Source: Marsupella aquatica (lineage: Eukaryota; Plantae; Marchantiophyta). From it: a stretch of DNA of 64,000 nucleotides. Under the pieces are notes generated by a model that did not search any database, was not told the origin of the DNA, and worked only from the letters and a program-made list of their open reading frames with translations. Position 1 is the first letter of the stretch. The number at the start of each line of letters is the position of its first letter. The DNA lies in NCBI GenBank assembly GCA_973895155.1, contig OZ316891.1, forward strand, positions 26,405,972-26,469,971, read 5' to 3'. Position numbers and translations under genes: made by a program. Shown here piece after piece: positions 15,088-56,286 of this stretch.

Positions 15088-15089
15088 AT

Positions 15090-15219
15090 TGTCGTGCTAG
15101 AGTGCATTGATGTACCAACTATGTTGTGACTGCAAACCTGTATAGTGAATACACTTGCTATTCTATCAGCTGTCCACTAGCATGCAAAAATAGAAACAGA
15201 AAAACATTTTATCTACTCT
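15090..15219 (-). repeat. 130-bp duplicate of the LTR end (copy of 14346-14475)
   Basis: Colinear ungapped match with scattered substitutions; separated from the LTR by AT. Confidence 0.9.
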
Positions 15220-15234
15220 CCCCTAGGTGGTGAT

Positions 15235-15541
15235 CTACTGGCCTCGTCGATTGGTGGTAGAATGATGTTGCCTAGTGCAGGCATCACAAAACCACTGACA
15301 TTCTGGAATATTGTGCAAGAGGTGTAAGACAAAACAAATGAAAGCCGTTGTTACAACGATCGCAAAGCAACATAAGATGAGCATCATCAATGCGACGACA
15401 AATTTGACAAAGATGATCCATAGATGGAACCCAGTATGCAGTAATTACAGTAGGATGAAGATTAGGTAGGTGGCATGGGGCACAATTTTTGAAGCGATCA
15501 TTGATGGTATGACCATCTGACCTTCCAACAAAAGCACTCAA
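15235..15541 (-). pseudogene. PHD finger at the C-terminus of integrase
   Basis: CQICRRIDDAHLMLLCDRCNNGFHLFCLTP, then after a frameshift LHNIPECQWFCDAC, giving the C4HC3 pattern. Confidence 0.9.
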
Positions 15542-16814: not shown

Positions 16815-16996
16815 TTGTACTCAGAGGACTGCATGACATTGCATCAACATTCTGGTGGGTGACTCCTGGTCGATGGATGATGTCAAAAGTGTACTCCTAC
16901 AAGATCAATGCCCACCTAGCCAGCTTACTAGTCAGTTTGTTATTAGTCATCAACCATTTAAGTGGCTGATGGTCTGTGAACAACACAAACTTCTTA
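16815..16996 (-). pseudogene. pol: RNase H C-terminal half
   Basis: KFVLFTDHQPLKWL...LARWALIL.EYTFDIIHRPGVTHQNVDAMS; continues the frame broken at 33552. Confidence 0.9.
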
Positions 16997-17330
16997 CACT
17001 AGTAGAAACCGGGGGGTATTTAGACCCCATTAAACGACTATTCAGTACCGTATAGGACTTGGAAACGACTGGGAAGGACTCTAGTCCTTTATAGGACTGC
17101 GAGTCGTATGTTTTGTTACTATAATCAACTGAGTCCTTTATAGAACTGGTTTATAAGTCGTTTAATAGTTTGGATTTTCAGTCTATTTTAGTCTTTGTGT
17201 GGGTAGCTTTGGTGAGTCATTTTTAGTCTTTTATGGGCTGCGATGATGAGTCGTTGGGAACGACTAAAAAGGTTATGGAGGGTAGTCTTTAAATATACTT
17301 TGTGGGGTATGTATAAGTCTTTTATGTCAA
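16997..17330. repeat. Left TIR and subterminal GACT/AGTC-core repeats
   Basis: AAACGACT, AGGACT, GAGTCG and TAGTCTTT repeated in both orientations; the same motifs occur at 33395-33530. Confidence 0.8.
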
Positions 17331-17822
17331 CTGGATATGAGTGATGAAGACCCCACTATACTACTTGGAATGAACCCACTCTTGTGCACAAATAACATAT
17401 TGCATTCATGTTTTATTGTGTACTTGGAATGAACTCACTCTATAAGTTCACCATTCATCATGTTAACATTAGAATACATAGTTTCAGAAAGCCATCTTCT
17501 ATACCATGTACACTAATATGAATTCACAGATTCAAACTTCATAGACTACAAAGAAGGTCACAAAGTATTCCTGTATACCATACACACTAATACTGAAATG
17601 ATAAAATAGATTCAAGTATCATAGACAATCACCATAGAGCCATAGTTTGACATCAATCACTTGTTTCATACATACAGAATTCAGAAATATCAATGTCACA
17701 CACAACGTCTCCTTCATCCTCTTTACCAAATGGAAAAATTGGTACAGATATTTCTTGGATCTTTCCAAGGCAATGTCAAAATGTGACACAATTCACATGA
17801 TGCTATCTACACTTGCATTCAG

Positions 17823-18311
17823 TCACTGCAGACTAACACACTCTGATGGCCAGAGCACAAGAGATCCTACTGCATCTGCAATTATTTCCTGAGGTGGATC
17901 ATCGTCTCTATTCGGAAATGGCAAATTACAATCAGATACAATCACTGTAGTCAACAACACTACTACATGGTCATCCGGGACCACTTTGCCATGGAATTTT
18001 GCATGATCCGGTCGCAAAATGCCTGTACCCACACATACCTGCGAGTCATCCTCCCATGATAGAAGATTATGGACTGGCTCTGCTGTGGCTATCACCTCCA
18101 CCTTACCCTGGCTGTTTTTCTTGGCTTTCCTGGGTGGCTTATACATGACATTATTCATACCTTGGTTGCGAGTCATGACTTTGGCATGAGTGTTTTGTGC
18201 TGGTGATCGAGAATTGGCTACACTCTTCTTCAAAGAATCTGCATCCATATTTGACACTTCTGATTGTGTAGCAGGATTTCCCTGCGACATCATCTCAGTA
18301 TCTGCCAACAT
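17823..18311 (-). CDS. Last exon of CACTA TnpA-like gene (Tnp1/En-Spm C-terminal domain)
   Basis: VGTGIL..HGKVVPDDHVVV...LPFP....IADAVGSLVLWP motif typical of CACTA second-gene C-termini. Confidence 0.7.
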   Translation of the reverse strand: MLADTEMMSQGNPATQSEVSNMDADSLKKSVANSRSPAQNTHAKVMTRNQGMNNVMYKPPRKAKKNSQGKVEVIATAEPVHNLLSWEDDSQVCVGTGILRPDHAKFHGKVVPDDHVVVLLTTVIVSDCNLPFPNRDDDPPQEIIADAVGSLVLWPSECVSLQ

Positions 18312-18989
18312 TGTACTTGCTTCAATTGAAGCATCTACAATCTTGCATCCAATGTTGCTCCCAAGTTTCGACGTCGCTTCACCCTACTCCCACTTGGTTG
18401 AGAGTCTGTCAACTCTGCATCAACTACAATTCAGTGTCATGTCCAACATAAGTCAATCACTCATCACATGTGCTAAATGTACATGTCACCAACCACAAAG
18501 TTGTCACTATCTCCTTACCATTATGAACAGCCTTCTTCCCCTTCTTTGCCATTGCCATATGCTCCATGTCTGCTTCTGTTGATCAATAAACACACCACAA
18601 TATTCAGGTTGAATCTATTAACCACTGAATTGTTGCTCAACATTCATATAGAGGAATTTAAAGCATCAGCTTACCTGATACCTCCTTGGCTATGGTCACT
18701 GAGGCACTGGGCACATCTTCTTCATTATTGCTCTTTGAATCACCTGATACATCAATCATGATGTCACTTCAGATCCCAGTTCATCCAACCAGTTCTTACA
18801 GAAAAGATTACCTCCAACCGGCTTAAGCTTCACAAAACTCCATGCACTTTTCAAATGTAATGTATTGGATCATAGCAGGTTACCTGTCTCAGCAACCTTC
18901 TTGCCCTTTTGCTTACTAATTACAGGGTCCTTCTCTGCCTCCACTCTTCCTGCATTCAAACCATTCACTCAATTCATGAAAACTTACTT

Positions 18990-19271
18990 CTAACATTTGA
19001 ACATAGGACACAATGAACAATGGGCCGGTGTCATTTCCATACCTGTGTCAGATTTGCCAATTCCCTTTTTTGTTAACAAGGACACACTTTGTACAATGTT
19101 GCCCTCATTGTTTGGTTGGGAACCACCCAATTTTTCAATCACAAGCTTGAAATTAGATTCCACTGATGCAAGAAGGTTCGCTACAAATGCCTCCACAATA
19201 TCCAAACGATCAGCCAATTTACTTTCCACTCGAGGGAGTCCACACTCTAATGACTTCAACCGTTCACACAT
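18990..19271 (-). CDS. Probable internal exon of TnpA-like gene, coiled-coil
   Basis: Heptad-like RLDIVEAFVANLLASVESNFKLVIEKL; same strand; flanked by GT/AG-like sites. Confidence 0.4.
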   Translation of the reverse strand: MCERLKSLECGLPRVESKLADRLDIVEAFVANLLASVESNFKLVIEKLGGSQPNNEGNIVQSVSLLTKKGIGKSDTGMEMTPAHCSLCPMFKC

Positions 19272-19622
19272 CTCTGTGAGAGTTGTAACAGTTCCCTGTC
19301 ATAACACAGCTTACATATCTCAGATAACTGTCCCCAAGAACTGGTTGCTTACTTCCTACTACATTTCTTTCTGATGCTCAAGGCCAAATAGTCACAGAAC
19401 ATATAGAATTACAACATAATCACCTGTTTGGAAGTTACACTTGTCACCTCACTCCTTTGTTTCATGAACTCCTCTCTCACTTCTTGTGCTGATGGTTCTT
19501 CACCTGTCAATTTCTTCTGCAGTCCACATCAACATACATATGAATGAAACCAAGTGTTGATTGTCAATGAAAATGTAATAATGGTAGCAAGATGATAAGT
19601 TTGAGGCTTACTATCAGGCATG

Positions 19623-20285
19623 TCACTGCCTTACCAATTGTTCTTTCACTGGAGCATAACTTCCTCTCCCAGCCTGTGAAAGGTGTTTCACTTTGCCTCG
19701 AGCATTTGACATCAGTTCACTCTTGCTCTGTCCAGCCTCCGACATGAACCCTTTGATTAACCGTGTCCATTGATCCAGTTCCAATGATGGGGGTGGTGGC
19801 ATTCTCCTGTTAGAACCATTGTCTATCCACATCCTTTTCAACCTATGCCTCTCTTGTTTCAAAATCCTCATTGCATAATCTGATATGCAATCCTCAACTG
19901 GGCCCTTACCATCATTACCAACATACTCCCACCGTTCAAGAATGTCCTTGCAGATAGCAGCCCAATCAGCTTTGTTCTGACTCCTAAACTCTGTAATGCT
20001 CAAATCTAACCAACGCAATACTTCTCCTCTTAGGTCAGAATGCCAACAGTTCTTACCATCACATGTGGGAGTTATCCAACCTTCGGAATTCACTTCTACT
20101 TTACCAAATTTGTTACTGTCTCCTGCCTTGGTACTCCCTGAAGCGCTACTAGGTGTCCCTCCACGGCCTGGTGTCCCCCCACGGCCTGGGGTCCCTCCAC
20201 GGCCTGATCTCCCCCCACGGCCTGGATTGCATTGTCCAAACCTCCCTGGAGTCCCTGCACATTTACAGGATCCATTTATAGTCAC
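19623..20285 (-). CDS. CACTA TnpA-like exon (Ptta/En/Spm transposase_24-like) with GRGGTP repeats
   Basis: RHRLKRMW..PPPSLELDQWTRLIK..SELMSNARGKVKHLSQAGRGSY; 18-bp repeats at ~20155-20225 encode GRGGTP. Confidence 0.75.
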   Translation of the reverse strand: MTINGSCKCAGTPGRFGQCNPGRGGRSGRGGTPGRGGTPGRGGTPSSASGSTKAGDSNKFGKVEVNSEGWITPTCDGKNCWHSDLRGEVLRWLDLSITEFRSQNKADWAAICKDILERWEYVGNDGKGPVEDCISDYAMRILKQERHRLKRMWIDNGSNRRMPPPPSLELDQWTRLIKGFMSEAGQSKSELMSNARGKVKHLSQAGRGSYAPVKEQLVRQ

Positions 20286-20618
20286 TTACATTAGGTAAGT
20301 ATGAATCATAAATCCCGCTGCCAAATATACAGTGGACTTCAGAGCAATTCTGCAATGACCAAGTTACCTCTCCCTTGGCGCATAGATGGTTCTGGACCAC
20401 CTGTCCTATTGCTTTGTCTTGATGAATTAGGGGCGTTTCTCTCGCCTGTGAATGATTGCCTCCTATCTGAACGTGGATGGCCTTTGTTGTTTTCGTGATT
20501 GTCCCAATCAGAGTCTGCATACCAACAGGTACATGCCACACTCATGGACCTGTAAGATAAACTCTTTGCCCTAGCTACACATCAGATAAGTGCATATTGA
20601 GCTAAATCTCTACTACCA

Positions 20619-20990
20619 TCACAAAATCACTAGCACAAGGCACTTACTTGTCCAATCATCCTCCTCACCTTTCCATTGCCCTCTGTACCCGTCTCTACCA
20701 CGCTCTGGGTGTTCATATTCATCCCATCCATCTTCTGCTCCATCATAGTCATCATCATAATCATCAGGCGTCCCTTGCCAATAACTCTGGCTCCTTCTAG
20801 GGTATGGATTATGTGATTTCTCTCTAGCTGCCCACCTACCTGGGACTTGATGAGGGCCCTGTGCATCTTGCACAGGTGCATTTTTCTGTGAGCCCCCTGC
20901 ATCTGGGTCTCCATCCATATCCAATCTTTCCTCTTCACCCCACTCTCCAAGCCCCATGTCTGTCTCCATGTCATCACCCTCTTCCCCCAT
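20619..20990 (-). CDS. Acidic, Gly-rich probable first exon of TnpA-like gene
   Basis: ATG ORF rich in D/E/G; GTAAGT donor near 20650. Confidence 0.45.
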   Translation of the reverse strand: MGEEGDDMETDMGLGEWGEEERLDMDGDPDAGGSQKNAPVQDAQGPHQVPGRWAAREKSHNPYPRRSQSYWQGTPDDYDDDYDGAEDGWDEYEHPERGRDGYRGQWKGEEDDWTSKCLVLVIL

Positions 20991-21167
20991 AGCTTTTGCA
21001 CAGCACCCACAACCAAACAGGGAGAATCAGCACACTAAATTCAAAGTATCAATCAATTTCATGCATATCCAACTATCCTAAACATCATTCCAGGCAGCAA
21101 TTCCCGTTATGTGACTCTGTGCAGGTAGTCATCCTCAACCTCATACTTGCCAATCGCCAGCTGTTGC

Positions 21168-24100
21168 CTATTGCAAATCATCAACCTCATCATATTCCAT
21201 TTGCCTAGGTTCATCATATGTCTCTCTCAATGTTAAGGGGATGTAGTCAGTCCCTGCCCGAGTTGGAAGTACAGTCTCATGACTAGGATGCTCGAATGCA
21301 GCATGGTCATCCAAACTGAACTCTACTTTACTTCCATCCATCCGCCTGTTCCGTGCTTGGCTATGGCATACCACCCTCCAGCCATGTGACTCCTCCACAT
21401 CTGCAAAGAAAGCCTGTTCAACTTGGCTAGGGAAAACAAAAGGCTCAGACCATTCTGGTACTCTGGACCTAAAATTGGCCAACAAGAACCCATCATGATC
21501 ACGCTTCATGGTGGCCCTTGGTCTCTGCCACTCTGATTTCACCCATGATCCCTTCATCAATATCACTGGGACACTTGTGTTACCATAATTCAACACCCAA
21601 ATGTCGGTCAACTCCCCCACGTAACCCATCTTCATCCACCCCCTCTGTTCTTCAGAGGTTCTCTGCTCAAACACAGAAATCAAACCACAATCATATGATA
21701 CACAATGGTCACCCTGCTCATCCCTCACTCGATAATGATTTCCATAAGCTCTCATCCGTTTGTAGGTCAGAATAGACAATCGTGGTGGCACAGATAGAAG
21801 ATACAAATCCTTCTCCATATCTGGGTGATGTCTACTATGCTCTCGAATTGTCACCCGAATCCACTGCTCGAACTGTGGGAAGGGATCCTGCTGCCCAGAG
21901 TGTGCAGCTTTTTGCATATCATATTCCCTGCATTATGAGGTACAGGCATAGTTAGGTCTAAACAACACATGACAACCTAAGATCACCCTTGGAACAGACA
22001 AGAAGCATCACAACAAAGGCAAGTCAATTCAATCACTCACCTCCACCATGGTTGCATAGGCTCTGTGTTTGCCAGCACATATGAATGAGCCTTGTCTCGA
22101 ATCGCAACAGGCAGCTGAACAGCACGTCCCACACCTTCAACAACCTCGCCACTCACTCCATCATCTTCACCAGATTTCCAAACTCTTGTCATAGCTTCAC
22201 CAGACCCAGCCATGTACTCTGTTAGGAATCCCAACGTCTCATCCTTAATGTACCCCAATGCCATGGAAGCCTCTGGCCTGTAGTATGTTCTCACATGACC
22301 TTTCAACAACTTCATGTATCGCTCCATAGGGTACATCCATCTGGTACTGACTGGCCCATACTGCCCTAGCTCTTCTACCACATGGATTAGGAGATGAGTC
22401 ATAACATCAAAGAAAGCAGGGGGGAAGTATATCTCCAAGTCACAGAGGACATAAGCAGCATCCTGCTTCAACTGCTCCAATCCTTGGGGATCCCACACTT
22501 TCACACATATACGGCGAAATACATTGCACAGTCGAAGAATGACATTACGGACTGGTTTCTGCATGAGACCTCTGAGGCATAGGGGCAGAATGTGCTGCAT
22601 CAACACATGGTAGTCATGTGTTTTCATACTGCCAAGTTTATTCTTTGTAATATGCTTCTTGAAGGCACCAGCATAGCCAGAGGGCACTTTCAGACAACTC
22701 AATCTATACAAGAATGTCTTCCATTCATCCTGTGTGCACACATAGGGAGCTTGGAACTTGAGAAGTACATTGGGATTGCTTGCATGGGGCTTCAACCAAA
22801 GGTGAGGGCGAATCCCCTTCTGTTGCATATCAGCTCGAACTGCTCCTGTATCTTTCTCACCCGACAAGAACTTCAGCAAGCTCTCACAAATATTTTTCTC
22901 AATGTGCATGACGTCCACATTGTGTTTGCTAGGCTCGAATTCCTGCACTCCACAAAGCAAAGAATTCAACAACAGAAACACTAATTAACCACATAGGAGG
23001 ATTGTAACCAACATCAATCCACCATTGCTCCAATCTAAAATTGCAATCATACAGGGGCTGGAGGCTAAGTACATTACCCTCCAGTACTCCAACTCCAAGT
23101 CCATCAAGGTCTGTCTTTTCACACCGTGTTTCACCACTGGATCCTCAAGTTCTCGATCAGTGGCACTTCTCTTGTCCCAATCAGCCTTCCTGGCTGCCCA
23201 CCTCAGGACTTGCTCTCTGGTGACCCTCTGTGGTGGGCCACGAAGCTCTGTTTTGTTGTTGAAGTGTGCAATTTGAGACCGTGTGTGCCTGTAAGGATGA
23301 TCAACAGGCAGATACCTTCTATGCCCCTGAAATTTCATACTGTGCAGGGCATGCGACCACTCACTTGTCACATTTTTCCCACATGGTGTGCACCCCACAT
23401 AGCCCTTTGTCACTCGTCCAGATATGATGCCATGGCCTGGGTAATCTGCTATATCCAGCAAACAAATTGCATGCAGTCTAAAGGGGCTGGGTCAAAGAAG
23501 CCCCTTCAGAACATCATGGGTTAACACCCCTTCTATCCACAAAGTCTTCCACTCTTCCACTGCTGGAGCCAACATGATATCTATGAATTGCTCGGTCACA
23601 GAAGCTGGTCCAGGGATTAACAGCACCATCATGACAAAAAACCTCTTTGTAGTCATCCATGGGGGAAGGTTGTAATTTAGCAGCGTAACCGGCCAACATG
23701 AATAACGGTTGTTTTTGTCTCCAAATGGGTTTACTCCATCCAGTGATAGACCAAATCGAAAGTTCCACTTCTTTGCAGCAAACTGTGGCCACCTCTCATC
23801 AACAAATTTCCAATGGTTGGAATCTCCAATGTGACGCTGCAGGCCATCACTGCTCTTGTTATCAGGAGTCCATGTCATCAGCTTGGAAATGGCAGGGCAT
23901 CTAAACAGACGTTGTAGTCTAGGAATGAGAGGAAAATGACGAAGAACCTTGGCAGGGTGTGTACATTTCCCTACATTCTTGTACCTGTGCTTACCACAAT
24001 GAGGGCATGTCAATTTATCTGCATGCTCTTTGCGAAAGAGAACACACCCATCAGGGCATGCGTCAATAGACACATAGTTCAGCCCAAGGTTAGACATCAA

Positions 24101-24868
24101 TTTCCTAGCCTCGTACATATTTTTTGGAATTGAATTACCATCTGGTAACACATTTCGGCGCAGGAAGGTCAACAACTCTGTCACAAATATATTGGGAACA
24201 TTGTGATTGCCACAGATGTTCAACAACAACACGACAAAACCCAGCTTGGAGCAGTTCGACCCCTCGTAGATAGGAATGCAAGCTTCTTTGATGTGTTTTG
24301 GGCCCCCAAACACCCACTCCCTCTCTGCTGCACCTTCCCCAATGTCAAAGTCAGGTTGAGCTTGGCCGTCGCCAATGTGTGGCTGCGGTTCATTGTCCTC
24401 TTCTGATTCCACTGTGTCGTAAAAAGCATCAAGGTCTTCAAAAATCTCTTGAACCATTCTTGGGACATCCATCCCACCGTCCTCAGTGACTGCCTCTGCA
24501 TCTCCATCTTGGTCATCCACGTTCTCATGTTGGACCCCAGGACCATCCTCTGCACAGTCTATGTCCTGCTCTACGTAGTCTCTACGCCTAGCTGTATTAG
24601 AATCCACAAAGTCAGCTCTCCACTCTTCATCAGAGGAGTCTTCTTCTGCTGGTACATTCCAAACCCTCCACCGAGGGTGCCTTTCATGCCGCAGCAGGTG
24701 AAGGTGCACAGTGTTCAAACTCAATGACTTGAATCCTTGGCACTGTGTGCATGGGCATCTCATCCTCCTACTCCTACCTTGGGCGGCCCGGGCTTGTTCA
24801 TGCATCCACAATTTAGAATCATGATGCCTAATCCTAAATGGGTTGTGAAGAGGCAACCTTGGAGCCAT
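21168..24868 (-). CDS. tnpD: CACTA TnpD/Tnp2 transposase, 3 exons, one in-frame stop at 23492-23494
   Basis: CPCTQC, DACPDGCVLF, LSLDGVNPF, YSCWPV..YNLPP, DYPG, DVMHIEKN, MKTHDYHVLMQ, RWMYPMER, EPFVFPSQVEQAFF; introns at about 23077-22943 and 22040-21929. Confidence 0.93.
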
Positions 24869-25194
24869 CACTATACACACGCACTCAGCACCCTGTCATT
24901 TTATTATGCAAGTGAAAAATACACTTCCTGTTAAGGATTTCACCCCCGACTGTACTTGCCAAAATACGTAATGTTCCAAAAAAACAAAAAAACAAAAAAT
25001 ATAGGTGCCTGAGTCATGTACCTATTCTCAAGTGAATGAGACAAAATTCCTAAATGTTTGAGGGTGTCAACTCCTCCGCTGTCCTCACATGTACTGCCTC
25101 TGCACGTACATCCATGACCATATCAGAGTCCAATCATGTATAGTCATAGACACAGGTGCCAGGTGCGAGACCGGTGTGAGATGTCCTCATCTTA

Positions 25195-25764
25195 CTACCA
25201 CATCAAATACGGATACCAATCCTGTTGTCGATGCCACTCAGCCCTGAGGTACTCAGGCATGTACATTAAGTCATCAAGGTCTAAACCCTGCTCATGCCAT
25301 GGTGGTCTTCGATCCGTGCCTACAAGCAGTGGCAGCAGTGCCCTCCATGGTGCACATGTTGCTACCAAGTCCCTCCACTGGGTACTAATTAGTCTATATT
25401 TGCAGATATCTTGTGCGCCAGACACCACAAGAACCCTCGGCCAGACATGTGTAAGAACTATATCATCTGCCAAATCAGGCAACAAGGAACCACCTACAGC
25501 ATCGTGCTTGTCTAACTCATCTGCTGAAAAGTAAATGTCCTCTTCCGACTGTGCATCCTCATTCACCACAGCATTCACAACACATCCAAGGTCTGCAGGC
25601 ATTATCTCGGATGGAGCTACACTCTGTCTGGTTACCAATCCACACAAGTAAGCCCAAGCAGTAGCCATGCACGATGCAACCCGTAGGAGGACCCTACATA
25701 GGGCCTGACGGTCTGGAAGAGGCAGCATACCCACCAAAGTCTTCAGCCAAACAGAGCCCAGCAA
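25195..25764 (-). CDS. F-box-like cargo ORF
   Basis: LLPDLADDIVLTHVWPRV...ICKYRLISTQWRDLV fits the plant F-box motif; no kelch/LRR domain follows; start codon uncertain. Confidence 0.65.
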   Translation of the reverse strand: MLGSVWLKTLVGMLPLPDRQALCRVLLRVASCMATAWAYLCGLVTRQSVAPSEIMPADLGCVVNAVVNEDAQSEEDIYFSADELDKHDAVGGSLLPDLADDIVLTHVWPRVLVVSGAQDICKYRLISTQWRDLVATCAPWRALLPLLVGTDRRPPWHEQGLDLDDLMYMPEYLRAEWHRQQDWYPYLMW

Positions 25765-25904
25765 GTAGATTCACAGTCACACCCCACGCAGCAGGAAACA
25801 ACAATCACTTCAACTGCGACCAACCATGACAAGATGAGTTAGTTCAAGGATCACATTTATTACAAAATTGTGTTTTATACAAAAATATGAGGGACTCCTA
25901 CTCC

Positions 25905-26753
25905 TCACTCTCTCCCACCTTTGCTAAGCATACATCTCTGCTGAATCTTGGAGGGCCAGGCCTCAAAAATATCAAAGTCCCAAGCATTCTGTCGCTTCCC
26001 TCTAGCTGCTGATTCCAGAAGCCAATCAGGGGAAAGCACCCAAAGATTGTTGTTCATGACAAAATCACGCACTGTTGTCTTAAAGAATTTTCTGCATATT
26101 TTCATGTATGACAGACCTACAACATGAGTGGAGGTTTCTGTTAGACTCTCCTCCACTGTCCCACCTAGCTCAACAACTATAGACTTGTACAGTCTGCACT
26201 TAGTCTCCCCAATTCCTTCTTCTGCAAATACCACACTGAACCCCTTCATAATGGTATTTCTCTCCTTGCCATGCTTATTCAATATAGCATCTGCACGCAT
26301 AGGATGGTGTCCTATGTTGACAACAGGTCCATATTGGACAGAAGCAAAGTTGGGTTTCTCTGCCGCTGCTTCATAGGCTTCCTTTTCAGCCAAAGCCTCT
26401 GCAGTGGCCTCCTCACTCTCCCACAACTCATATTGCTCAGTACTCTGTACACACCTATGTTTAACAGAATCGGTCAGCCAAGAGACTTCAACTACTTTTA
26501 GACCTTGGTTGGTAATGGCAGAATCAATGAAGGACCATGACCACTTGTTCATCACATCCAGCCATGTCCCCGCAACAACATGTGTAGTCTGTGGAGTGAT
26601 GTCCTTGACTTCAGTCCCATGGAACTCTGAGAATCGTTTTTGTACGATTGGCCAACTCACTTGGGTGAACCCATAGTGGCCAGGAATCAAAATGGCTTTG
26701 ATTCCAGCCAACAGAGGCGGGTGGTCAACCTTTGTACGTTTCCTAGAGGCCAT
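25905..26753 (-). CDS. Tandem BRCT-domain cargo protein
   Basis: Two repeats: ITPQTTHVVA...VVEVSWLTDSV and ELGGTVEESLTETSTHVVG...VLSPDWLLESA; N-terminal basic RKRTK. Confidence 0.85.
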   Translation of the reverse strand: MASRKRTKVDHPPLLAGIKAILIPGHYGFTQVSWPIVQKRFSEFHGTEVKDITPQTTHVVAGTWLDVMNKWSWSFIDSAITNQGLKVVEVSWLTDSVKHRCVQSTEQYELWESEEATAEALAEKEAYEAAAEKPNFASVQYGPVVNIGHHPMRADAILNKHGKERNTIMKGFSVVFAEEGIGETKCRLYKSIVVELGGTVEESLTETSTHVVGLSYMKICRKFFKTTVRDFVMNNNLWVLSPDWLLESAARGKRQNAWDFDIFEAWPSKIQQRCMLSKGGRE

Positions 26754-27351
26754 GTACACACGGGCCACCTAATCACTGCAGACCGGAAGATAATGCGTTC
26801 ACCTGATAATCGGAGGGCCCTTAAAATGCTGCGTTTATAACTTGGTCCAGTCCAGTCGTCTGGTGAGTCTCTGCTCCGATTCCAAACGGGAGAAATATTG
26901 GGACAAACGTACTAGACACCTGCAAGCATGCACCTCATAGTTTGAATATGTGCCTTCACAATATTGAAGGTGACAAGTGCAATTGTTTTGTGATGCCACA
27001 TACAGATGTTGTAAATGGGCAGACATTCAATGAGAATACAAAATGTTGGTACACTTTAAGGGAATTCTCGCAAATTAAATAGCCTTGTAACTTATATGCT
27101 CATAATGAGAAGTCCTGATTTAATTTAAGCAGTGTCATGTAAGTCGTGATCAAAATGATTGCAGAGTTAAAAAAGTTCCTAGAAGGCTTAAGGGCAGTTT
27201 TTGAAGGCATGTACCCAGGAACAAGTAATGAACTTAGGGTACTTGTTGCCTAAGCATCCTCTCCTACAGAGGTCCTTCTTCTCAAAATTGGAATGTCTGC
27301 AATCTCCAAGGTATCCACATCAGGTGCACTATGCATGTATATTATTCAGGT

Positions 27352-28032
27352 TCAAAGCCAAGAAATGTGATCTCTCATGGGAGTGTGCAAAGTAGGATCT
27401 ATGGCATGGCGATGACAATAGAAGATCCATCGATCAACACCATGTGCAGAGTGATCATAGATGTGTCTGTCACAAGCATAGCCTTCTGCTTGACGCTCCT
27501 TCAAACAATGAAAGTGCCACATGGTGGGACACCTAACACAGTGGACTATGTCCACCCAGAAATCTTCATCGTGCTGACCACATGCCTTGCACTTATGAAG
27601 TGGGCAAGCTGTGGCAAGATCGGGCAAACATGAAAAACAAAAGAACCTCACACAATATCTGTCAGGGCATTTCCTAACAAGTGGTGGAGCATCAACAGAG
27701 CCCTCATAAGACCCCAACTTCCCACACTGTGCACACTTAGCCTGCTTCTCCAAACAATCAGTGCACATCCAGCCTCCCTGGTGTGCTGACGGGAGGCCCA
27801 CCCCTGGACAGTTGTTTTCTGCAGCAAGGTCAGACTCCGGGTTGAGGTGGAAATGCCTCATGCAAGGGCCCTCACATATGGCTAAGCCACCACCATCGTC
27901 ACAAATGGCACAACAATGAGCTGCCTTCTGGAAAATCTGACTTGCGGAGAAGTTACTACCATCTGGCCCAACTACACCTGTGTTGCTCACCTCTGTCCCC
28001 CGCTTCTTGGCTCGGATTTTAGGGCGTGCCAT
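27352..28032 (-). CDS. EDM2: EDM2-type composite PHD-finger cargo protein (reader module only)
   Basis: CAICDDGG..CEGPCMRHFH, CAQCGKLGS, CPLHKCKAC, CVRCP..HFHCL, IFYCHRHAIDPTLHTPMRDHI; colinear with the EDM2 PHD region as recalled (CAICDNGG..CEGSCLRSFH..CPLHKCSVC..YCQEHEIDEELLTPVRDHV). Confidence 0.85.
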   Translation of the reverse strand: MARPKIRAKKRGTEVSNTGVVGPDGSNFSASQIFQKAAHCCAICDDGGGLAICEGPCMRHFHLNPESDLAAENNCPGVGLPSAHQGGWMCTDCLEKQAKCAQCGKLGSYEGSVDAPPLVRKCPDRYCVRFFCFSCLPDLATACPLHKCKACGQHDEDFWVDIVHCVRCPTMWHFHCLKERQAEGYACDRHIYDHSAHGVDRWIFYCHRHAIDPTLHTPMRDHISWL

Positions 28033-28701
28033 GCCTACGCATGAGATAGATAGTACAATTTAGCAGAGTGCACGGACAATACAATTTAGTGCAGTGTACA
28101 AAAAGTACAGTGTAGCATATAGACTAGAGTGGCAATTGCTACTGCAATGAAATGTTCACACACATGTGCAGAGTAGACATACTTTTTGGTTTGTTGAGCC
28201 CACACTAAAAACTGATCCCCTCGTACAATAGCTCCACCTACACCTCAATTTTGTGGCTATGATTCACCAAAGGAGATCTGCAACAAGATTTAATGCATTT
28301 GAATCACATATAACAGTCGTGACATGTAAAACAGGCATTTTTTGAACAGGATTGGTATCAAGCACTGTGATCAGGGTTGTAATTTATACATCCTAAATAG
28401 GCTATGATAGTGAATGAGACAAATAAGTTAGGCAGAAATCACTTTTTCCAGGTTATCACATGGCCCATTAATTCCAGTCTTTGAAAGGAGACTTTTAAGT
28501 GAGCTTGCTAGCCTCTTAAATTAGGATATTGTACTTAGTGCAGCCATAATAGGATAAGTTATGTACTGTTGACCCTAAACCCTGGACCCAAAATTGGTCA
28601 TAATTCAAAATCTTAAGTAAATATCCTCTCTGTTCAAGTCAAAGTGTTAAGTTATAGGTCAATGGTCTCTGGTTTGTGCATGCGGTGTGACAAGTGGTCC
28701 T

Positions 28702-29151
28702 CTAGAGCGTGTGATCCAAACATGTGTAGACACCAAAGTGACCGGTGGTGGGGTCTGGGAGGGCAGGACAAGTGACATCGCCAGGCACACTGCAGGATGG
28801 CGAGTGGTTCCAGATGATACATTGTGCTCTGTGAAAAAACCGACATCCAAGAGAACGGTCATCCAACTCTAGGCCAGAAGCCCTACAGGCAGGACAGTCA
28901 TATTGGCAACTGTGCACACACCCTTGGGCCCTAATTTGTGGCGGGTCATGTATGAGAGACAGAAATACCAAGGATGTTGGGAAGGGTGGAGAAGCAGGTA
29001 CAGGCCGGCTGTAGTTGTTCCTGGCAACAACTGGGTACTCAAAGTACCATGCAGACTGGGCTGGAAGGATCCCAAGTCTGACATACTCAAGGCGCAACAT
29101 CTCTGCCTTGCGTGCAAGCCGCACATGTTCAGCGTTGCGGGTCCTCACCAT
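28702..29151 (-). CDS. Cys/His-rich ORF of unknown function
   Basis: ATG start, 149 aa, CVHSC..DCPAC...C..FH...C..WNH; same strand and spacing as the other cargo ORFs. Confidence 0.45.
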   Translation of the reverse strand: MVRTRNAEHVRLARKAEMLRLEYVRLGILPAQSAWYFEYPVVARNNYSRPVPASPPFPTSLVFLSLIHDPPQIRAQGCVHSCQYDCPACRASGLELDDRSLGCRFFHRAQCIIWNHSPSCSVPGDVTCPALPDPTTGHFGVYTCLDHTL

Positions 29152-30534
29152 AAGTGTTGCTTTTGTGGAGATGTCGTGTGTTCACGTCCTCTGATAAGCA
29201 CCTTCGATCAGCAAGGTGAGCAGGAGCTGTACTTGCCTCACCAACAGCAACCAACCTTAAATTATCAGTTCCCACTCACTGTGTCATTCCATTGGTTCCA
29301 GCTAGGGGTCACAGTGTAAACATAGCATGAAACACTCCTAATCAACTTGCTTACAAACTACAATATCCAGAAAGAGTGAAAGTCTCACCCTCCAGTGAGC
29401 AGCAGAGAGGTAGTTCACTAGATGTGTTGATGTGCAGTTAAACCTCCACTATTGCTTACTTCTGGTGTATGCTGCTCAGAAGAAGACATATTAGTAGCAG
29501 CAAATTGCAAATAATGGCCATAAGCAAACTGTGAGAGTTTGCAGAATGCTACGACAAATCCATCACAGCAGTGCTCCACAGGAATGAAACCAAGCAAAAT
29601 TTGGTGACCTCGGCCAATGACAAGGCCAATGTAGTGAACAATCCTTGACCGATCAGGATATGGATTGGAATTACAATTAGTCAGCTCTTCTTCTTTGTTT
29701 TCTAACTCTGGGGGAAATGAGCATGACCAGGGAATTCTTTGAGAAATAGAAGTGCACAGGGAAAATGAAATTGGCTCATTCAGCTGCGCAAGACCGGCCA
29801 TTGCAGCAAACTTGGACAGTTGTTCCGCAATACATAAAATACCCTGACTTACATGCAATCGATACAATCTGCTTCTGTTGGCTGTCCTATAGCTCACGGT
29901 AGTGCCGTTGGGATAGGGTAAGTAAATATTGCCATAGCTGAAGCACATTGAGCTTGCAGCAAGAAGTGAAGGAGCATGGCCAAAAGCAGAAAAGACAGAC
30001 AGGTTTTACAAGAAGAAACTAACAACCGCCAATCTGCTCAAATCCGCTGCATAGATCAAACCCTCCAAACTACACAGCCCTCCTTTGAAAACAATCCAAT
30101 GTGCTTTGGCTGGTGGATGACAAGGACTGGGAGAAGAGGAAACGTCTACACAATCAATCCCAATGACGGGACACAGAGACCAGGCACAGAGAGGAGTTGT
30201 GCTTAGACAAAAACCACAAATTGTAGCATGGGCGCCATAGCATTGGGCGGCAATGGGAAGAATTACATCAAATGAGTGGACAGAGAATTAATGAACAGTC
30301 CGGTTATAGGCAAACAGCGACTGATGCCCTGATGCAATGAAACACGCATTGACATAGCGGAGGGACATAAAAACTACATAAGCCAACTTACTGACCTTTT
30401 AAGGCCCACAATTTCAAGGGGAGGGACAAAGACAGCAATAACAGACGCAGAGACAAAGCTGTACTCTGTCAATTGAGTAGGCAAGTGGGTGGGTGAAGAT
30501 CAACAACCAATGTAGCAGCGCAACCAGAGTAGCA

Positions 30535-30650
30535 ACAAAGAAGCAGGTTGCCCTCAATCTCCTATTTTTCAAGCAGCTCGTGCTCGCGGTCAATCTCCTA
30601 TTCTGCAAGCAGCTCACGCTCGTCCCTCTTGTTCTGCAAGCAGGTCATTC
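30535..30650. repeat. Degenerate 33-bp tandem repeat, about 3 copies
   Basis: AAGCAGCTC.TGCTCGCGGTCAATCTCCTATT units. Confidence 0.6.
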
Positions 30651-33394
30651 TTGTCGGCGATGGTGCAAGCTGTCCTCCTAAACTCTGACACTCAAAATGA
30701 AAAGACCAAGCACCTCCAATCTGTTTGATCCCTTCCGCAAGCAGCCGAGCGGCAGACGATAATGTAGGGATCAAGAACCAAGTGCCAGGCGGACATTGCA
30801 CAAAATGAGGACCAGGGGCAGAGACAAAATCTACCGAAATCTATCGAAATCTACTTCTTGGGGTCCAGCCCACGGATGGACATCATGCAAGGTGGTCAAA
30901 AATGGTAAGTGCAATTGTTGGAGAGCTGTACTCGCGATTACTAACGGTGCATCCACAAAACGCGTCATCAAGTTGTCAGTGCGGCCACAACAATTTTGAC
31001 AGTCTCAGGATCACAGGTCCACAAACAAGTTGCAAATGAAGACACACAACGTCCAGGAGGGAAAGTCCGCAACACTAACCCTTTGTAAAGCCCCCGAGCT
31101 TACCTTCTAGCTGCCGACGCAAAGAGAAAACCTACTCGGACACTGAAGCAACCCTAAACTCAAAGTCTCACCTTAGCGCAACAACTCCTGGATTGGATTC
31201 AGCTAGCTCAGGCTCAATGAAGCATGTCGCCTCGGGCTCTCCGGATCCTCCCAAGGCAGCAAACAAGTTAGGGTCCACGGTCCTTGTACCTTCACCACAC
31301 CGTTGTGTCCTTCCCAATGCCTCCTCTGTAGTTGCGTCTTGTCTGCAACTCTACAGCTCCCCGTGTTGCTCTGCCGCACTTAGTTATATTCCAACGCCCG
31401 ATCGTGACCAAAAAGAGTTTTCTCCTGCTGGACAGCACTAGGCATTTATTCAATCTCTTGATCACGCGTAAGCAGCTACAGGTATGAATCACTCAGTTGG
31501 CAGCTCAATACGCTTACAGCAAGAGGGCGCAATAGGTAGAAGCTCGCGCTACCTAGACCAGCACAAGGACAAAGCATTAACATTGAAACTGTACCATGGA
31601 GCTGGAGAAAACCACAGAGTAATTGAAGCCTAACAATACCCTTCTTAGCTCCCGACTCCAAACTCTCGGCTCCCAGTTTGCAAGAACAAGCACTATGAAA
31701 ATATGGATTCCCACATTGACTGTGTCCGCAGAACAGATGCAACCCGCATGCAACTTCACCAGCTCAACGGCAGCTTGACAACTGAAGGACCTCCCAATGA
31801 GCCTCACGGCCTCCCGATGCTCGTTATGGGTGCAGCAAAAGGGTCTATACCACAACTGTGACCGAGATTGTCACCCAAAACCTTGAAGAAACCCCAACCT
31901 CCGACTCCTCAAACTCCGACAAGCTCCTCACGAACGTTGCAGTAGCCACAACCTTCTTCGCCCTACCAGCCAAAAACTAAATGTCCCTAAAGGAGATCGA
32001 GCAGGAATGCAGGTCTATGAGTAGACTGCAAGCGCAAGGTTAGATCACTGCAACTGCCTGAACACTGCTCCTCGAGAGCATAAACAAGCACATAACGCGC
32101 GGGAAGTTCACTCCGCAATGGTCGCAAAAAGTGGGCAACACTGAAAGGAAAACCCTACGTAAAACCCCGAACACTCCACCCCTCACGTTCTAAGTTCAAT
32201 GACAATGGCGAAAACTCCAAAGAGACTCCCAAAGTGAAGTTTAGTGCCTGAAACCGAATTAGGGGAAGCCACTCAGCCTTACCGTTTGAGTGAGCCGTTG
32301 AGTGTCACCCAAAGTGGGACAAAGCTACAAAGTGTTACTGCATGGCCAACTTAGGCAATGAATGGTCATATTTGCACATACATGGTCGGTAGTGACATTT
32401 TATTGCACGCTGTAATCAGGATTAAGGTTGCCCAACATTATATCCGATCCTAAAATGCAATATTCCCGGTGCAAGAATGTGACCTAGCTCTAATGTATGA
32501 AAAAGGACCGGTACAAATCTACCTTTGTGCATCTTGACCTTTTATAGATGGATTTAGTAATGGCCAAGAATATCTTGACCATCCCTCCATGGTCCAACCT
32601 CCATGAACCCCACTTCATTAAACCCAAAACCTTTTTGGTCACAAATAAGGAAATTTAATGAGTTATGCCCCTTGCTATCACCCTCTTTATAGATTTATTT
32701 TTTTGTTTGAAATTTTACATTTATTCCGCGTGAACCCCACGGATGGGGGAACCAGTAGGCCAAATGGCATCATAAAACCTCAACACCCAAAGGAGGCAAT
32801 AATAAAGAGTTACTCAACCAGGGTCATCAGATCAGGCAAAGATTGCGAAGCCGTTCTTCTAGTGGTCCATGCAACAAGTAACAACTAGGGAATAAGCACT
32901 AGAAGGCGCAGTAGGTCAGCATAGTGTAAGTGTAAAGTGTCAAAGCATTGTCTAGTACTAAATTAATCCACCTGATTAGTAAGAAGGGGGTGTATACTGT
33001 AATGGGAAAAAGAAAAAAAAACCAAGGCATGAGCAAGGGCCACCAAGAGTGGTGCAGCTATAAGCTATAGGGATTGAACACAATGCGGGGGGGGCAGTGG
33101 CACTATGTATGAGGAAATCATGGGAGTATCGGTGTCAAATGAGTCGACAAAACTCCCAGATAGCCACACAGTATAAATCAATCTCATAGAAGGCTGCCAT
33201 CAATGGAGGAAACAATTTGACACGACCCACATCTGAGAGTGTGAATTCGCTCGATCTCCAGCAGTTCTTTGGCACTCGATAGACGTCGGTGCTTTCGGCT
33301 CAAAGATGAAGGAGAATTACCCCTCCTCAACATAGAGTGAACATTACCCATGATGTGCTAGACTATTCACCCTTCACAAAGTAGCAAGGTTACT

Positions 33395-33551
33395 TCTCAT
33401 AGTCTTTTAGTGAACCATAAAACTCTCATAGTCTTTTCTAGTCTTCAACAAAACCGGTGCAATGGGTGCGAGTCGTTTTAAGTATGGAAAAAGGACTTAG
33501 TGGGCATAGTCCTATAAGGTATGGTCTAAATTGCCCCGGTTTCTACTAGTG
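33395..33551. repeat. Right subterminal repeats and TIR of CACTA
   Basis: TAGTCTTT, GAGTCGTTT, AAGGACT; ends CCCCGGTTTCTACTAGTG. Confidence 0.85.
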
Positions 33552-34800
33552 TTACCATATAGGTATGGTCGAAAATATACCACAACCCATATCATAGCAA
33601 GTAGCTCTCCTTCATAGGATGAGTAGTTGTTTTTGCCTTGTTGTTATTGTGTAAAGCATAGGCAACAACATACTCTGGTTCACCATCATCCTGCTGTCCT
33701 AGAATGGCTCCAAGACCAATAGCACTCCAATCAATGTGAAGAATGAAAGGGATCCTGAAATTGGGATGCCAAAGAACTGGGTGTGTAGTCAGTACTGCTT
33801 TGATCTTTTCAAATGCAGTCTGTCGTTCTGCGGTCCAACACCATGGGGTTTCCTTTTTCAATAATTGATTTAGAGGGCTTGCAATGGTACTGAAATTCTC
33901 AACATGTGTGCGGTAGTAGTTACACAGACCTAGAAAGATACATAGTTTGTTGACATCTATAGGTGTCTTCATGTTGTTGATAGCCAGGACCTTGGCCTCC
34001 TCTGGCATGAGTCCATCTGGAATCACTTGGTGTCCCAAATAGATCACAGTGTTCACCCTAAATTCGCATTTCTTGGGATGATATTTGAGATTAGCTTTTC
34101 TGAGCCTTTTGAACAGATCCTCCAAATCATCCATGTGCTGGTCAAATGAAGGGCTGTGCACTACAACATCATCAATGTAACATTTTATGTGTGCTGCACC
34201 TTCCTTCACTATATCTATGACCTTCTGAAAGAAGATGGCTGCATTCACTATGCAAAATGGCAGGCATAGCCATTCCCACAACTTGTCACTGCCATGGAAT
34301 GCAGACTTCTTTCTGTCCTTCTTTGCCACAATGATTTGGATGAACCCTTGCCGTAGATCTAAAATAGAGAAATATCGAGACTTTTCTAGCCCATCAAAGA
34401 TCTCTTCTGGTGTGGGGACATGATATCTATCCAACTGAGTTACCAGATTGAGTGCCCGATAATCCCCAGACATCCTCGTCTCTGACCATAGACCGCTGCT
34501 ATCCTTCAGATTTGCTTGCATGATTGTGGGAGCAGCAAAAGGGGAACTTGAAGGTCTGATGAGACCTGCCTCATGTAGTTCCTTGCATCTGGCATCCACC
34601 AACTCCCACTCATGCTGGCTTAGTCAATGCTGCTTCCAAAATATCGGTATCTCCTTAGTCAATGGAATTGTGAATTCCATTATGTTGCACTTCCCTAAAT
34701 CCTTCATAGAGAATGCAAAGCAATCTTTGTACTCATTGATGAGTTTCTTCATTTGGAGCTTCTGGGTTTGCCGTTAGTTGTTCTCCCATGGTCCACTCAA
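33552..34800 (-). pseudogene. pol: Gypsy RT and RNase H N-terminal half of the DNMT element
   Basis: DYRALN, LDLRQGF, YIDDVVV, YLGH, FLGLCNYY, LHIDWSAIGLGAILGQ. Confidence 0.95.
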
Positions 34801-34889: not shown

Positions 34890-35975
34890 TTAACTGGGAC
34901 CTCTCCCCCCAAACCATTGGTTTGAAACCTGTGGAAGATGTAAATCTATGGGAGAAAGTGTCTCAATAGCAGCTACCGCCTTCGTGGTATGTTGCGCGTT
35001 GGTGAGCATTTGAAAAGCCAAGCAGGAGGACAGTACCCATGAAAATCCTGTGAGGTCAAGCGCTTGGCCTAGCAATTTGTTGCGTTGATGTTTTGTAAGA
35101 CTAGGGTGCAGAGTGCTCCCTGTCTGAAATCCCATAGCGCGCTCGCGCTCCTCTAGGGATGGTGGCTGCCACTGTTGTCTGGCCTGTCGGAATACCAGCC
35201 CTAGACCATCTCCCCAAAATGCAAAGGAGCCCGAGAAGGATAGTAGTATGGGCCATACTGCCCATGGTGTGCCTATGCGGTTGGCTGGAAAGAACGGTGC
35301 ATGTTTAGTCTGTACCACTGATCGAGGCAGACTGCCAGGATCCAAAATTTGTTGTAATTGTTGTGAAGGATCTGGCTTAGTCTCCAACAGAACCAACTTA
35401 AGAATATTATGTGGTGCTAGGTTAGTCCACAAATTGCGTAAACAATGGGCATAAGACCCGCATTGAGCTGCATCAATGAGGAATGGATTGCTCAACAAGT
35501 GTTGAACAACAGCAAAATCTTTCAACACATCAGTCTGAGAGTCAAACTGTGTAGGTGCATTTTCCAAGATGTAACCCACACATGGGTTGCGTTGTTGTAT
35601 CCAACCAAGCACCCGAAGTAGATCCTTGAACAACATTGAATGGTTATCTCGTAAACCTCCACCTGTGCCTACTACAAAAAATCCTTGGCACTCCCAGCCA
35701 GCAACTACCAAATGTATAGGGCCTAGTAACTGGATGTGGCGTTGTTGGATAAGTTTGATATCCGGAGGAAGAAATGTGAGAGCAGGCTCCCATGCTGTGG
35801 TAGAAAAGAGTTGGAAATACTGTTTACTTAGGGTGGCAAGATGTTGAGGCAGCAATAAGCGTGCGGCAACATCTGTGTCATAGTACACATACTTGTGTAT
35901 CCGTAATCCATACTTGAGAGCGGCCTCAAGCCCAGTAGCTAGTCCCCCAAATAATTCCACAAATGTGATGCCTTT
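34890..35975 (-). CDS. C5 DNA cytosine methyltransferase domain (DNMT3-like, copy A) inside gypsy pol
   Basis: Motif I VELFGGLATG, IV AGWECQGF, VI ILENA, VIII AHCLRNLWTN (copy B AYRLRNLWTN), IX EERERAMGF, X RNKLLGQALD, in canonical order; more than 350 open codons. Confidence 0.9.
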   Translation of the reverse strand, partial: KGITFVELFGGLATGLEAALKYGLRIHKYVYYDTDVAARLLLPQHLATLSKQYFQLFSTTAWEPALTFLPPDIKLIQQRHIQLLGPIHLVVAGWECQGFFVVGTGGGLRDNHSMLFKDLLRVLGWIQQRNPCVGYILENAPTQFDSQTDVLKDFAVVQHLLSNPFLIDAAQCGSYAHCLRNLWTNLAPHNILKLVLLETKPDPSQQLQQILDPGSLPRSVVQTKHAPFFPANRIGTPWAVWPILLSFSGSFAFWGDGLGLVFRQARQQWQPPSLEERERAMGFQTGSTLHPSLTKHQRNKLLGQALDLTGFSWVLSSCLAFQMLTNAQHTTKAVAAIETLSPIDLHLPQVSNQWFGGRGPS

Positions 35976-37661
35976 TGTGATGCCTAGCCAAGAATCATTA
36001 GGCCAGTTTAAATAGTAAAATCAGGAGTGTACCCTAGGAAACACCTTAGTATAGTAACAAAAACAGGGAAAATATAAACAATTAAGGGTAACTATGGAAC
36101 CCGAGCCGAGGCTGAAAGTAAGGACACCAGGGGAGGGAACACGATTAGGGTTAGGGCACGCTAAGTACCGGCGGCTATGGGTAACCAACGGGAAGGAAGA
36201 CCAGCCAGGGGGGTAAGGACCGATCGCAAGGAATGACGATTCATTTGCAAGCACAAGCCAAGCGGACGACTACGGGAGGCCAACTACTGTCCGCTGCTCA
36301 GGCAAGCACTCAGGGTGGAAGCAGATACCGACAATCAACTCAAGAAGAGTATGAGCAACATCAATCAAGTTGCTCATTTTTGGGGATACCTGTTAGAACG
36401 GGCAACTGAGTACATTGGGACATACGAGGACAAAGAATTGGAGAGAGCGGCTCGAGAACGGTAGGAGCTTGCTCGGCTATGGGAGCTGCAAAAGTCTGCC
36501 TTCTTAGGAGGAGAACTCATTACAGCTAAATTCTTGTGGACGCCTACTGCCGACAAACTCGATGATCTGCTGTTTTGTGAGGACAGAATAGTCGGCATTC
36601 GGGGGGCCATCAACCGCTGTAACGACATACATTGGGAGTTGAAGGGTAGCACGGAGGGGTGGACAAAGGCAACCGTGCTAGGAGAAACATCCACAGTAGC
36701 CGCTATGAAGAGGAAAGGGAATAACAATGAAGAAGCCACCCCTGCGAAAAGAATGAGGTCGGCAGCACCCAGGAAACCAACAGAGCAGGGAAGCAGGAGG
36801 CAAGCGGAAGCCAAAGAGGAGGAGGTCGACCCCGTCAATGCCATTCCAACAAGAGATGACACCTAGAAAGGCTGGGCGGCAACCCTCCCCGAGGAGGTGC
36901 AATTACACTTTGCATGGGAAGAGGATGCATGCTTTACGGCTATGCAGACTCGGAAATACCAGGGCTTCATGGCCGGATCCGGCTTGGAAGCCTTCGTAAA
37001 GTTACCATGGCTGAAGCCGGAGGTGTCAGGTTCAGACTTACTAGAATTCATGGGATCATGGGAGCCGAGACCAATTCCATAAGGGTGTATGGGAAGGATT
37101 TCTATCTCACTCCTTGGGTGATTGCCAAAGTGTTTGGCTTGCCGATGGGCAATAAGACCAAAGTAGATACCAGGAAGACCTTGCCAGACAAGGAGTTCCG
37201 GTCGTTTCCAGGGCCATCAACAAAGAATGGCTTCTTCCAAAACACCTGCATAAACCCGCACATAGGAGAAATGATCAATTTCTTGCGGGTGACCATGCAT
37301 TGCAACTTGCCGAGGGCAGAGATCGGCAAGGTATAGGTCTATCTGGCGGAGAGGCCAGACCCAAGCTGAGACTACAACGGGTACCTCCTCACCCAACTAA
37401 AGAAGATCTTGAAGGAGGAATAGCTGGTGATCGGCATGGGAAGCGTGTCCCGACTTGGTTATCATATGCCGCTGTTGTGCCGGTATGCCCGAAGTCAGAT
37501 ATTCGCCCCGGTACTGCCCCTGCAGGCAAGAGCACCAAAGGAGGTTATGGAACCGAGGCTAGCAATAGAGAAACCAACCCAGCCCGATAGTCCTACAATC
37601 GAGCAGGTGTTTAGGCCGAGGAAGGAGGACTTGCTGATGCAGCAACCAGGCATGCACCACA
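35976..37661 (+). repeat. 5' LTR, internally deleted
   Basis: 36521-37656 matches 49382-50178, then jumps via ATGCA to the LTR end ATGCACCACA (seen at 53149-53158), followed by the PBS. Confidence 0.85.
36351..37656 (+). pseudogene. N-terminal part of the LTR-encoded accessory ORF
   Basis: ATG at 36351 in frame with 36534 and 36897; GLEAFVKLPW..LLEFMGSW..RVYGKDFYLT..IAKVFGLP, homologous to 62788-63200. Confidence 0.7.
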
Positions 37662-56284: not shown

Positions 56285-56286
56285 AT

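Follow-up and report, generated by a model that had tools for sequence, protein, structure and literature searches.

Why does a CACTA transposon carry a gene for a small three-finger protein, and what could that protein do for the element? The window, by which we mean the whole stretch of DNA analysed (64,000 nucleotides), was initially annotated as holding an EDM2-type PHD module inside a CACTA transposon. A scan for CACTA-type ends left a single pair, 16997 and 33551, that combined a full match with a target duplication: the outermost 18 bases agree, and TTA stands on each side. Contigs from three of four runs (X1, X3 and X5) represent the empty site, joining 16993 to 33552 and skipping 16,558 bases. 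The insertion interrupts a Ty3/gypsy element, whose integrase lies to the left of the CACTA element and whose RT/RNaseH lies to the right, on the same strand. Terminal repeats, TTA duplication, transposase and empty site together bear out the annotated location in a CACTA transposon, whose parts outside the finger gene are:

16997..33551, complete CACTA element of 16,555 bp, delimited by the terminal inverted repeat pair, the target duplication and the empty-site joint; its host is a Ty3/gypsy retrotransposon
16997..17014, plus strand, left terminal inverted repeat of 18 bases with CACTA at its start; TTA duplication at 16994-16996
33534..33551, minus strand, right terminal inverted repeat; TTA duplication at 33552-33554
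29418-29948, minus strand, further ORF inside the element, without family assignment
28702..29151, minus strand, Cys/His-rich ORF of 149 aa upstream of the finger gene, without a Pfam match or a usable Atlas match
25905..26753, minus strand, second cargo ORF of 282 aa with BRCT domains (Pfam BRCT E 6e-14, two stretches)
25195..25728, minus strand, third cargo ORF of 177 aa with a weak F-box-like stretch (Pfam F-box E 0.082)
21168..24868, minus strand, CACTA transposase with Pfam matches to Transpos_assoc, Transposase_21, DUF4218 and DUF4216 (Transposase_21 E 4.5e-34)
19623..20285, minus strand, likely TnpA-like exon (weak Transposase_24 match, E 0.014)

All ORFs between the terminal repeats lie on the minus strand, in the order 29418-29948, 28702-29151, finger gene, BRCT, F-box-like, transposase and Transposase_24 exon, and poly(A)-like words occur between them. 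The transposase of this copy contains an in-frame TGA at 23492-23494. CpG is depleted across the element (observed/expected 0.37), and short words recur near both ends, as candidate subterminal repeats. Contig joints in X1 and X3 (22492-28713, 28234-29009 and 19023-19847) indicate internally deleted derivatives, and one of these joints removes the finger gene. The bin of the 149-aa ORF has the top summed depth within the element in both runs. The BRCT ORF gives weak BRCA1 matches only when compared with solved structures; it may be conserved cargo as well, and a role in recruiting repair is conceivable. Elsewhere in the window, a Ty3/gypsy frame weakly matches C5 DNA methylase at 34890-36020 (minus strand, E 0.007) and 8957-9657 (plus strand, E 0.12), the two copies being 86% alike; retrotransposon-borne methylases occur in some algae and plants. 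A young copia element, its LTR stretches 99% identical and its gag-pol frames long, occupies 55953-62627, and a 19-base repeat array lies at 43052-43292.

The finger gene itself comprises the following parts:

27352..28032, minus strand, stand-alone EDM2-type triple-finger ORF of 226 aa (P0001), supported by translation, Pfam, profile scores, ligands and structure model
28035..28036, minus strand, possible 3' splice acceptor AG, 2 nt ahead of the start codon; a Gly-Met junction is also present in the relatives P0004 and P0134
28000..28029, minus strand, residues 2-11, histone-H3-like N-terminus, predicted disordered, with A1, R2, K4, A7 and K9 identical to the H3 10-mer
27754..27912, minus strand, finger 1 (C41-C93), PHD-type, with an EDM2-like long loop between ligands 5 and 6
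27595..27735, minus strand, finger 2 (C100-H146), with a family-specific His-to-Cys change (C132) and a deletion of about 20 residues
27406..27591, minus strand, finger 3 (C148-H209), variant PHD with an EDM2-like long insertion
27355..27405, minus strand, C-terminal extension common to EDM2, ending RDHI-SWL (loose motif)

The intact ORF with a basic N-terminus described initially is there: the frame runs from ATG to TGA without an internal stop and closes with ...YCHRHAIDPTLHTPMRDHISWL, the plus strand of the same span carries stops, and the 40 residues ahead of finger 1 contain 7 K+R against 2 D+E. The protein has 22 Cys and 16 His, and Cys or His occupies 24 of 24 positions aligned with the EDM2 three-finger ligands, with one His-to-Cys change at C132; the annotated wording, that most metal ligands are kept, was right in direction and understated. 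The claim of an intronless gene with its own start stands for the coding part, and 12 of 13 family members align at the start Met. The AG at 28036-28035, two nucleotides ahead of the ATG, makes a spliced upstream exon possible. The 226 residues contain no domain other than the three-finger module, and the ORF ends past it.

A structure model of the protein based on a 73-row alignment reaches pLDDT 88.4 and pTM 0.82, with residues 1-21 disordered (pLDDT <50); it supersedes a model from a 6-sequence alignment (pLDDT 51). Fold searches with this model recover PHD fingers piecemeal only, the best being NSD3 PHD5-C5HCH (Z 6.0, rmsd 2.6, 84 aligned). Finger 1 aligns to PHD1-type solved fingers at Z 3-4, and no EDM2 structure is among the matches.

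We examined whether the module belongs with EDM2, as annotated, or with the generic NSD-type fingers that share its three-finger order. Profile A1, built on six family members (the finger protein and the five relatives nearest to it), gives 120 of 120 listed long matches 89.6-166.8 bits (median 110); these had been gathered using an alignment that included EDM2-like rows and were scored with A1 alone. They are mostly EDM2-named, many as ENHANCED DOWNY MILDEW 2 in the source. The same profile gives 103.8 bits to P0007, a full-length EDM2-like protein at locus L002, and 45.1 bits to NSD2 (residues 647-801, E 9e-11). With the finger protein as sole query, the two scores are 48.6 and 16.8 bits. 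Between ligands 5 and 6, finger 1 has 7-12 residues in 10 of 10 family rows and 8-14 in 120 of 120 long matches, against 2 in three of the four NSD-like rows, those that matched. The finger 3 gap is EDM2-like as well (medians of 29 and 31 against 21), the finger 2 gap is shortened (7 against 25-29), and the loose C-terminal RDHI motif is found in 99 of 120 long matches and all six family members. Because profile scores, loop lengths and C-terminal motif all agree with EDM2, we class the module as EDM2-type and not generic NSD-type, in line with the initial annotation. Pfam matches the protein to three NSD-named PHD families, all below cut-off; these best matches do not refute the EDM2 type, because the full-length EDM2-like P0007 matches the same families. 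An NSD-type cassette, with short loops in fingers 1 and 3 and no RDHI extension, does not describe the family.

The protein itself is not an EDM2, since it is without EDM2's other listed domains. The replication-foci, acidic and ELP methyltransferase-like domains are absent from it and present in P0007 and most long matches. In 116 of 120 long EDM2-like matches, at least one of the four positions ahead of finger 1 is acidic; none of the six family members checked has such a residue. The top Atlas match is a streptophyte cluster with the same domains (0.93), and the best of the long matches listed share 27-35% identity. Single-sequence search returned no longer protein among 393 candidates; profile searches found them. 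PHD-only EDM2-like proteins also occur near seed-plant EDM2, outside the family (L001:679-1665, L004 and L005; P0152, P0153, P0159, P0172 and P0175), and EDM2-type fingers appear fused to a protein kinase (P0257) and to a La-related protein (P0030, by the source's name), fusions that may be annotation artefacts.

The tree check proposed initially is less telling. In a tree of 35 rows, picked to cover each group under labels assigned in the analysis, with long-branch and partial rows excluded, eight family members form one clade (100/99) that lies apart from the seed-plant EDM2 clade on a stem of 0.83 changes per column. A quick 71-row tree recovers the same clade (98). The tree does not nest the family inside EDM2 with support, nor does it point to a donor. 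Two NSD-like rows split off at 96/88, and the best tree places the family and the NSD-like rows on one side of a branch (63/29) so weak that the family may be basal or drawn there by long branches. A sister relationship to a host-like group without the methyltransferase-like domain (P0135, P0138, P0147, P0151 and P0177) is not rejected (p-AU 0.5), and grouping with seed-plant EDM2 is borderline (p-AU 0.054). Grouping with four seed-plant-type PHD-only rows is weakly rejected (p-AU 0.041).

The finger protein has at least 11 stand-alone relatives at 33-82% identity with largely kept ligands, and further short stand-alone relatives stand at the top of the 150 matches listed from the 547 of an exhaustive profile search. 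In each of the 11 relatives, identity at the ligand positions far exceeds that at the rest (Fisher p 1.3e-2 to 1.5e-10); in P0005, for example, 24 of 24 ligand positions are identical against 52 of 152 others. Eight ligand losses occur among the 11 relatives, six of them Cys to Tyr, and the frame is lost part-way in P0134, P0136, P0166, P0253, P0259 and P0262. We infer that these Cys-to-Tyr changes and frameshifts are what the decay of methylated repeat copies would produce. The dN/dS check, which describes two contigs and not a population, came out divided: an X10 contig gives 0.30 across 56 codons, with 28 of its 30 differences listed (dN 0.13, dS 0.45, Fisher p 0.003), and an X11 contig of depth 2, for which the list has 14 of 18 differences, gives 0.89 with a stop codon.

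Summed contig depth in X1 is 136,000 and 250,000 in the finger-gene bins, 141,000-263,000 over the transposase and 15,000-16,000 in the flanks, figures that show only a like order of abundance, since summed depth is not copy number and no contig spans the whole element. In X3, finger-gene and transposase depths are of the same order as in X1. The finger gene therefore appears to be a regular part of the CACTA family. In X6, which carries another organism code, diverged contigs with depths up to about 750 each are confined to 27411-27965, inside the ORF, with flanks in the same stretch at 0-11; depth in this run is also raised over the transposase and the BRCT and F-box-like bins. Searches of viral contigs gave 42 pattern matches and no relative of the finger protein, and nine loci on metagenome contigs are EDM2-like transcripts and one unrelated PHD protein, with no transposon context. 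Ligand conservation in all 11 relatives, the dN/dS of 0.30 and the deep family clade support long-term selection rather than recent Pack-CACTA capture, as had been suggested from the single copy.

The initial annotation missed one feature, the H3-like N-terminus. After the start Met, the finger protein is identical at 5 of 10 positions to the H3 10-mer, taken as printed in the available portion of PMC5415848. Across 13 family N-termini, (A/T)R-x-K stands in H3 register in 10, and counts by H3 position are R2 12, K4 10, A1 10, A7 6, R/K8 6 and K9 6. The linker that follows (the next 20-30 residues; residues 10-35) varies in length and sequence. In a BLOSUM comparison against shuffles of residues 2-16, p falls below 0.05 in 9 of 13 members (0.006 for the finger protein) and above it in P0003, P0004, P0130 and P0255, family members that are not independent of one another. 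We rely on this test, since a six-position tail score (p 2.5e-5) was selected post hoc. The finger protein's H3-likeness score of 19 is not reached by any of 253 other proteins in the collection. Among those scoring highest are PHD-only EDM2-like proteins that do not belong to the family and long EDM2-like proteins with M-A-R starts. A-R-x-K starts occur in 4 of 20 short non-family proteins. M-A-R starts are found in 10 of 102 long EDM2-like representatives and in none of the 120 long matches scored with A1. Given these H3-like starts outside the family, the start may have been inherited from the host EDM2-family gene or have arisen twice. The long M-A-R starters are unnamed EDM2-like proteins (P0135, P0137, P0138, P0140, P0141, P0144, P0200, P0205, P0220 and P0236); P0137 matches the H3 10-mer at five positions, and one group among them is without the methyltransferase-like domain. 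Met-Ala starts are common, as are basic N-termini, and the tail may instead be a nuclear signal or a DNA-binding arm. Residues 2-27 have no match among solved chains at E 10. Taken together, the in-register start, its predicted disorder in the model and its conservation in relatives are consistent with an N-terminal H3 mimic.

Our best reading, plausible and still tentative, is that the CACTA element carries an intact, conserved EDM2-type three-finger gene with an H3-like start, encoding an old transposon accessory chromatin protein that would serve as a chromatin-binding decoy and ease silencing of the element. The gene would descend from an ancient capture of a plant EDM2-family gene by internal trimming. 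Finger 1 would bind either the outermost residues of the H3 N-terminus or the tail of the same protein, and the tail could be a bait or an on-off lid for the fingers. By competing with host histone readers and writers, the protein would relieve silencing of the element. A reader module that has a histone-like tail but lacks any effector domain suits a competitor better than a stand-in for EDM2. In finger 1, position 54 is acidic in each of the 10 members in which it is covered, and position 89 is Trp or Phe; the presumably corresponding positions of AIRE-type fingers hold R2 (acidic) and A1 (aromatic) of H3. EDM2 was recovered with H3K9me1/2/3 peptides, as stated in the available text of PMC6208443.

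Several observations weigh against a decoy: the X11 contig with its stop and dN/dS of 0.89, the four tails that fail the shuffle test, the weak branch on which the family falls with the NSD-like rows, the lack of any relative joined to a transposase in the data examined and the interrupted transposase of this copy. In BAZ2A, an acidic residue just before the first Cys lines the K4 pocket, and T3 is essential for some PHD fingers (both PMC5415848). Since that acidic residue is missing before finger 1, the finger protein may bind histones differently or no longer at all. The tail has Pro at position 3 in 6 of 13 family members.

We weighed this decoy reading against other roles. The fingers might read heterochromatic marks and, with the transposase or the TnpA-like protein, steer new copies into repeats where harm is small, comparably to the chromodomains that steer some retrotransposon integrases. 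The insertion in a Ty3/gypsy element, the bare reader module without effector domains and the abundance of the family in X1 and X3 are consistent with such a tether. We nevertheless consider it rather unlikely, because there is a single insertion site in a window that is mostly retrotransposon, and hence no enrichment, and because the role has no need of an H3-like tail.

Unlikely to a slightly greater degree is a selected accessory protein that has changed its job, becoming a scaffold for protein or DNA (for example with the BRCT or F-box-like cargo), with the N-terminus as nuclear signal or DNA-binding arm and no histone reading. The lost acidic residue before finger 1, the remodelled finger 2 and the two further interaction-type ORFs next door all suit this role. 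It leaves unaccounted for that R2 and K4 stay exactly in register from the start Met although the linker varies, and that finger 1 keeps its acidic residue at 54 and its Trp or Phe at 89.

The protein might also act as EDM2 does, binding the marked chromatin of the element and recruiting AIPP1/ASI1, and thereby let transcripts run past internal poly(A) sites as far as the transposase. Cargo ORFs and transposase share one strand and are separated by poly(A)-like words. At heterochromatic sites, EDM2 represses the use of proximal poly(A) sites (PMC7529245, whose available portion also gives the EDM2 domain list) and promotes COPIA4 transcripts (available portion of PMC3632883). This seems improbable to us, since the finger protein is without the replication-foci, acidic and methyltransferase-like parts of EDM2, and the host complex could serve without a transposon copy. 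AIPP1 binds the replication-foci domain of EDM2, the very part that is absent here. Least credible, and in our view very improbable, is a captured host fragment carried neutrally, with ordinary host genes as its conserved relatives: in the data examined no relative is joined to CACTA ends or to a transposase, one low-depth contig is near neutral and PHD-only EDM2-like proteins exist outside the family, but ligands are kept at 33-45% identity, multi-copy depth in another organism (X6) is restricted to the ORF, and several relatives are frameshifted or, in 6 of 8 ligand losses, changed from Cys to Tyr, as in decaying methylated repeats.

Returning to the decoy, we compared the finger protein with known systems. 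EDM2 of Arabidopsis and its plant homologues, which act in the AAE complex with ASI1/IBM2 and AIPP1/EDM3, share with it the order of ligands, loops that are long in both finger 1 and finger 3, and the RDHI motif at the C-terminus. They differ in size (about 1,300 residues against 226), in having the replication-foci, acidic and methyltransferase-like domains, with a basic H3-like start replacing the acidic region in the transposon-borne protein, and in a finger 2 that here has a 20-residue deletion and the His-to-Cys change. The PHD1-3 cassette of NSD1/2/3 has a homologous three-finger order; the profile of the family scores NSD at less than half of EDM2, and NSD proteins have short finger 1 and finger 3 loops, are without the RDHI extension and bear a SET domain that the finger protein lacks. 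Histone mimics such as influenza NS1 (H3K4-like) and G9a (H3K9-like) are likewise non-histone proteins in which a short H3-like motif sits in disordered sequence (PMC6028506). The putative mimic described here differs in standing at a true N-terminus, joined to a reader module and on a plant transposon.

Among transposons, Pack-CACTA elements likewise have CACTA ends flanking host-derived sequence (PMC13317346, in the part available). In the present element, the cargo is an intact ORF under selection, far from any host sequence found in a comparison made without the host's own genome, and the element also encodes a transposase. PHD fingers occur on plant TIR transposons in MULE transposases and one MULE accessory protein, as single Pfam PHD, PHD_4 or zf-PHD-like matches, and Table S6 of PMC12973397, as far as available, lists none for CACTA. 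That survey, which covered active TIR elements of 1,007 plant genomes, gives PHD-type domains for MULEs only, in its accessible portion, and screened elements of 2-12 kb, so that one of 16.5 kb would be missed. In the literature covered, with subscription papers and Repbase outside its scope, we found no PHD, EDM2-like or histone-mimic protein reported on a CACTA element.

The closest functional parallel, already drawn in the initial annotation, is VANC of the VANDAL (MuDR) elements, a transposon-encoded accessory protein from a host chromatin regulator (available parts of PMC13547354 and PMC5735166). VANC is derived from MAIN, a precedent for transposon capture of a chromatin regulator (PMC13547354, same portion), and shows that plant transposons can convert such a captured regulator into an anti-silencing factor (PMC5735166 and PMC13547354, likewise). 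The finger protein has no VANC or MAIN homology, matching PHD-type Pfam families only. VANC belongs to another superfamily and fold, binds DNA motifs and causes demonstrated hypomethylation, whereas the finger protein is a candidate anti-silencing factor. According to the accessible text of PMC12973397, few plant transposon-encoded counter-silencing proteins are known.

As a minimal EDM2 module that occurs naturally and is modelled with confidence, the finger protein would ease peptide-binding and structure work, and its H3-like start can be tested with short peptides. A bolder version, which we consider doubtful, is that a long-lived CACTA lineage has fused an H3 mimic to a captured EDM2 reader, the tail titrating H3K4 and H3K9 writers and readers or gating the fingers in a virus-style counter-defence; the H3-like N-terminus would then be an overlooked regulatory feature of EDM2-family proteins outside seed-plant EDM2. 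If the decoy reading is true, a trimmed heterochromatin reader kept under selection in a CACTA element would be a second route beside VANC, one that acts on histones and not on DNA motifs.
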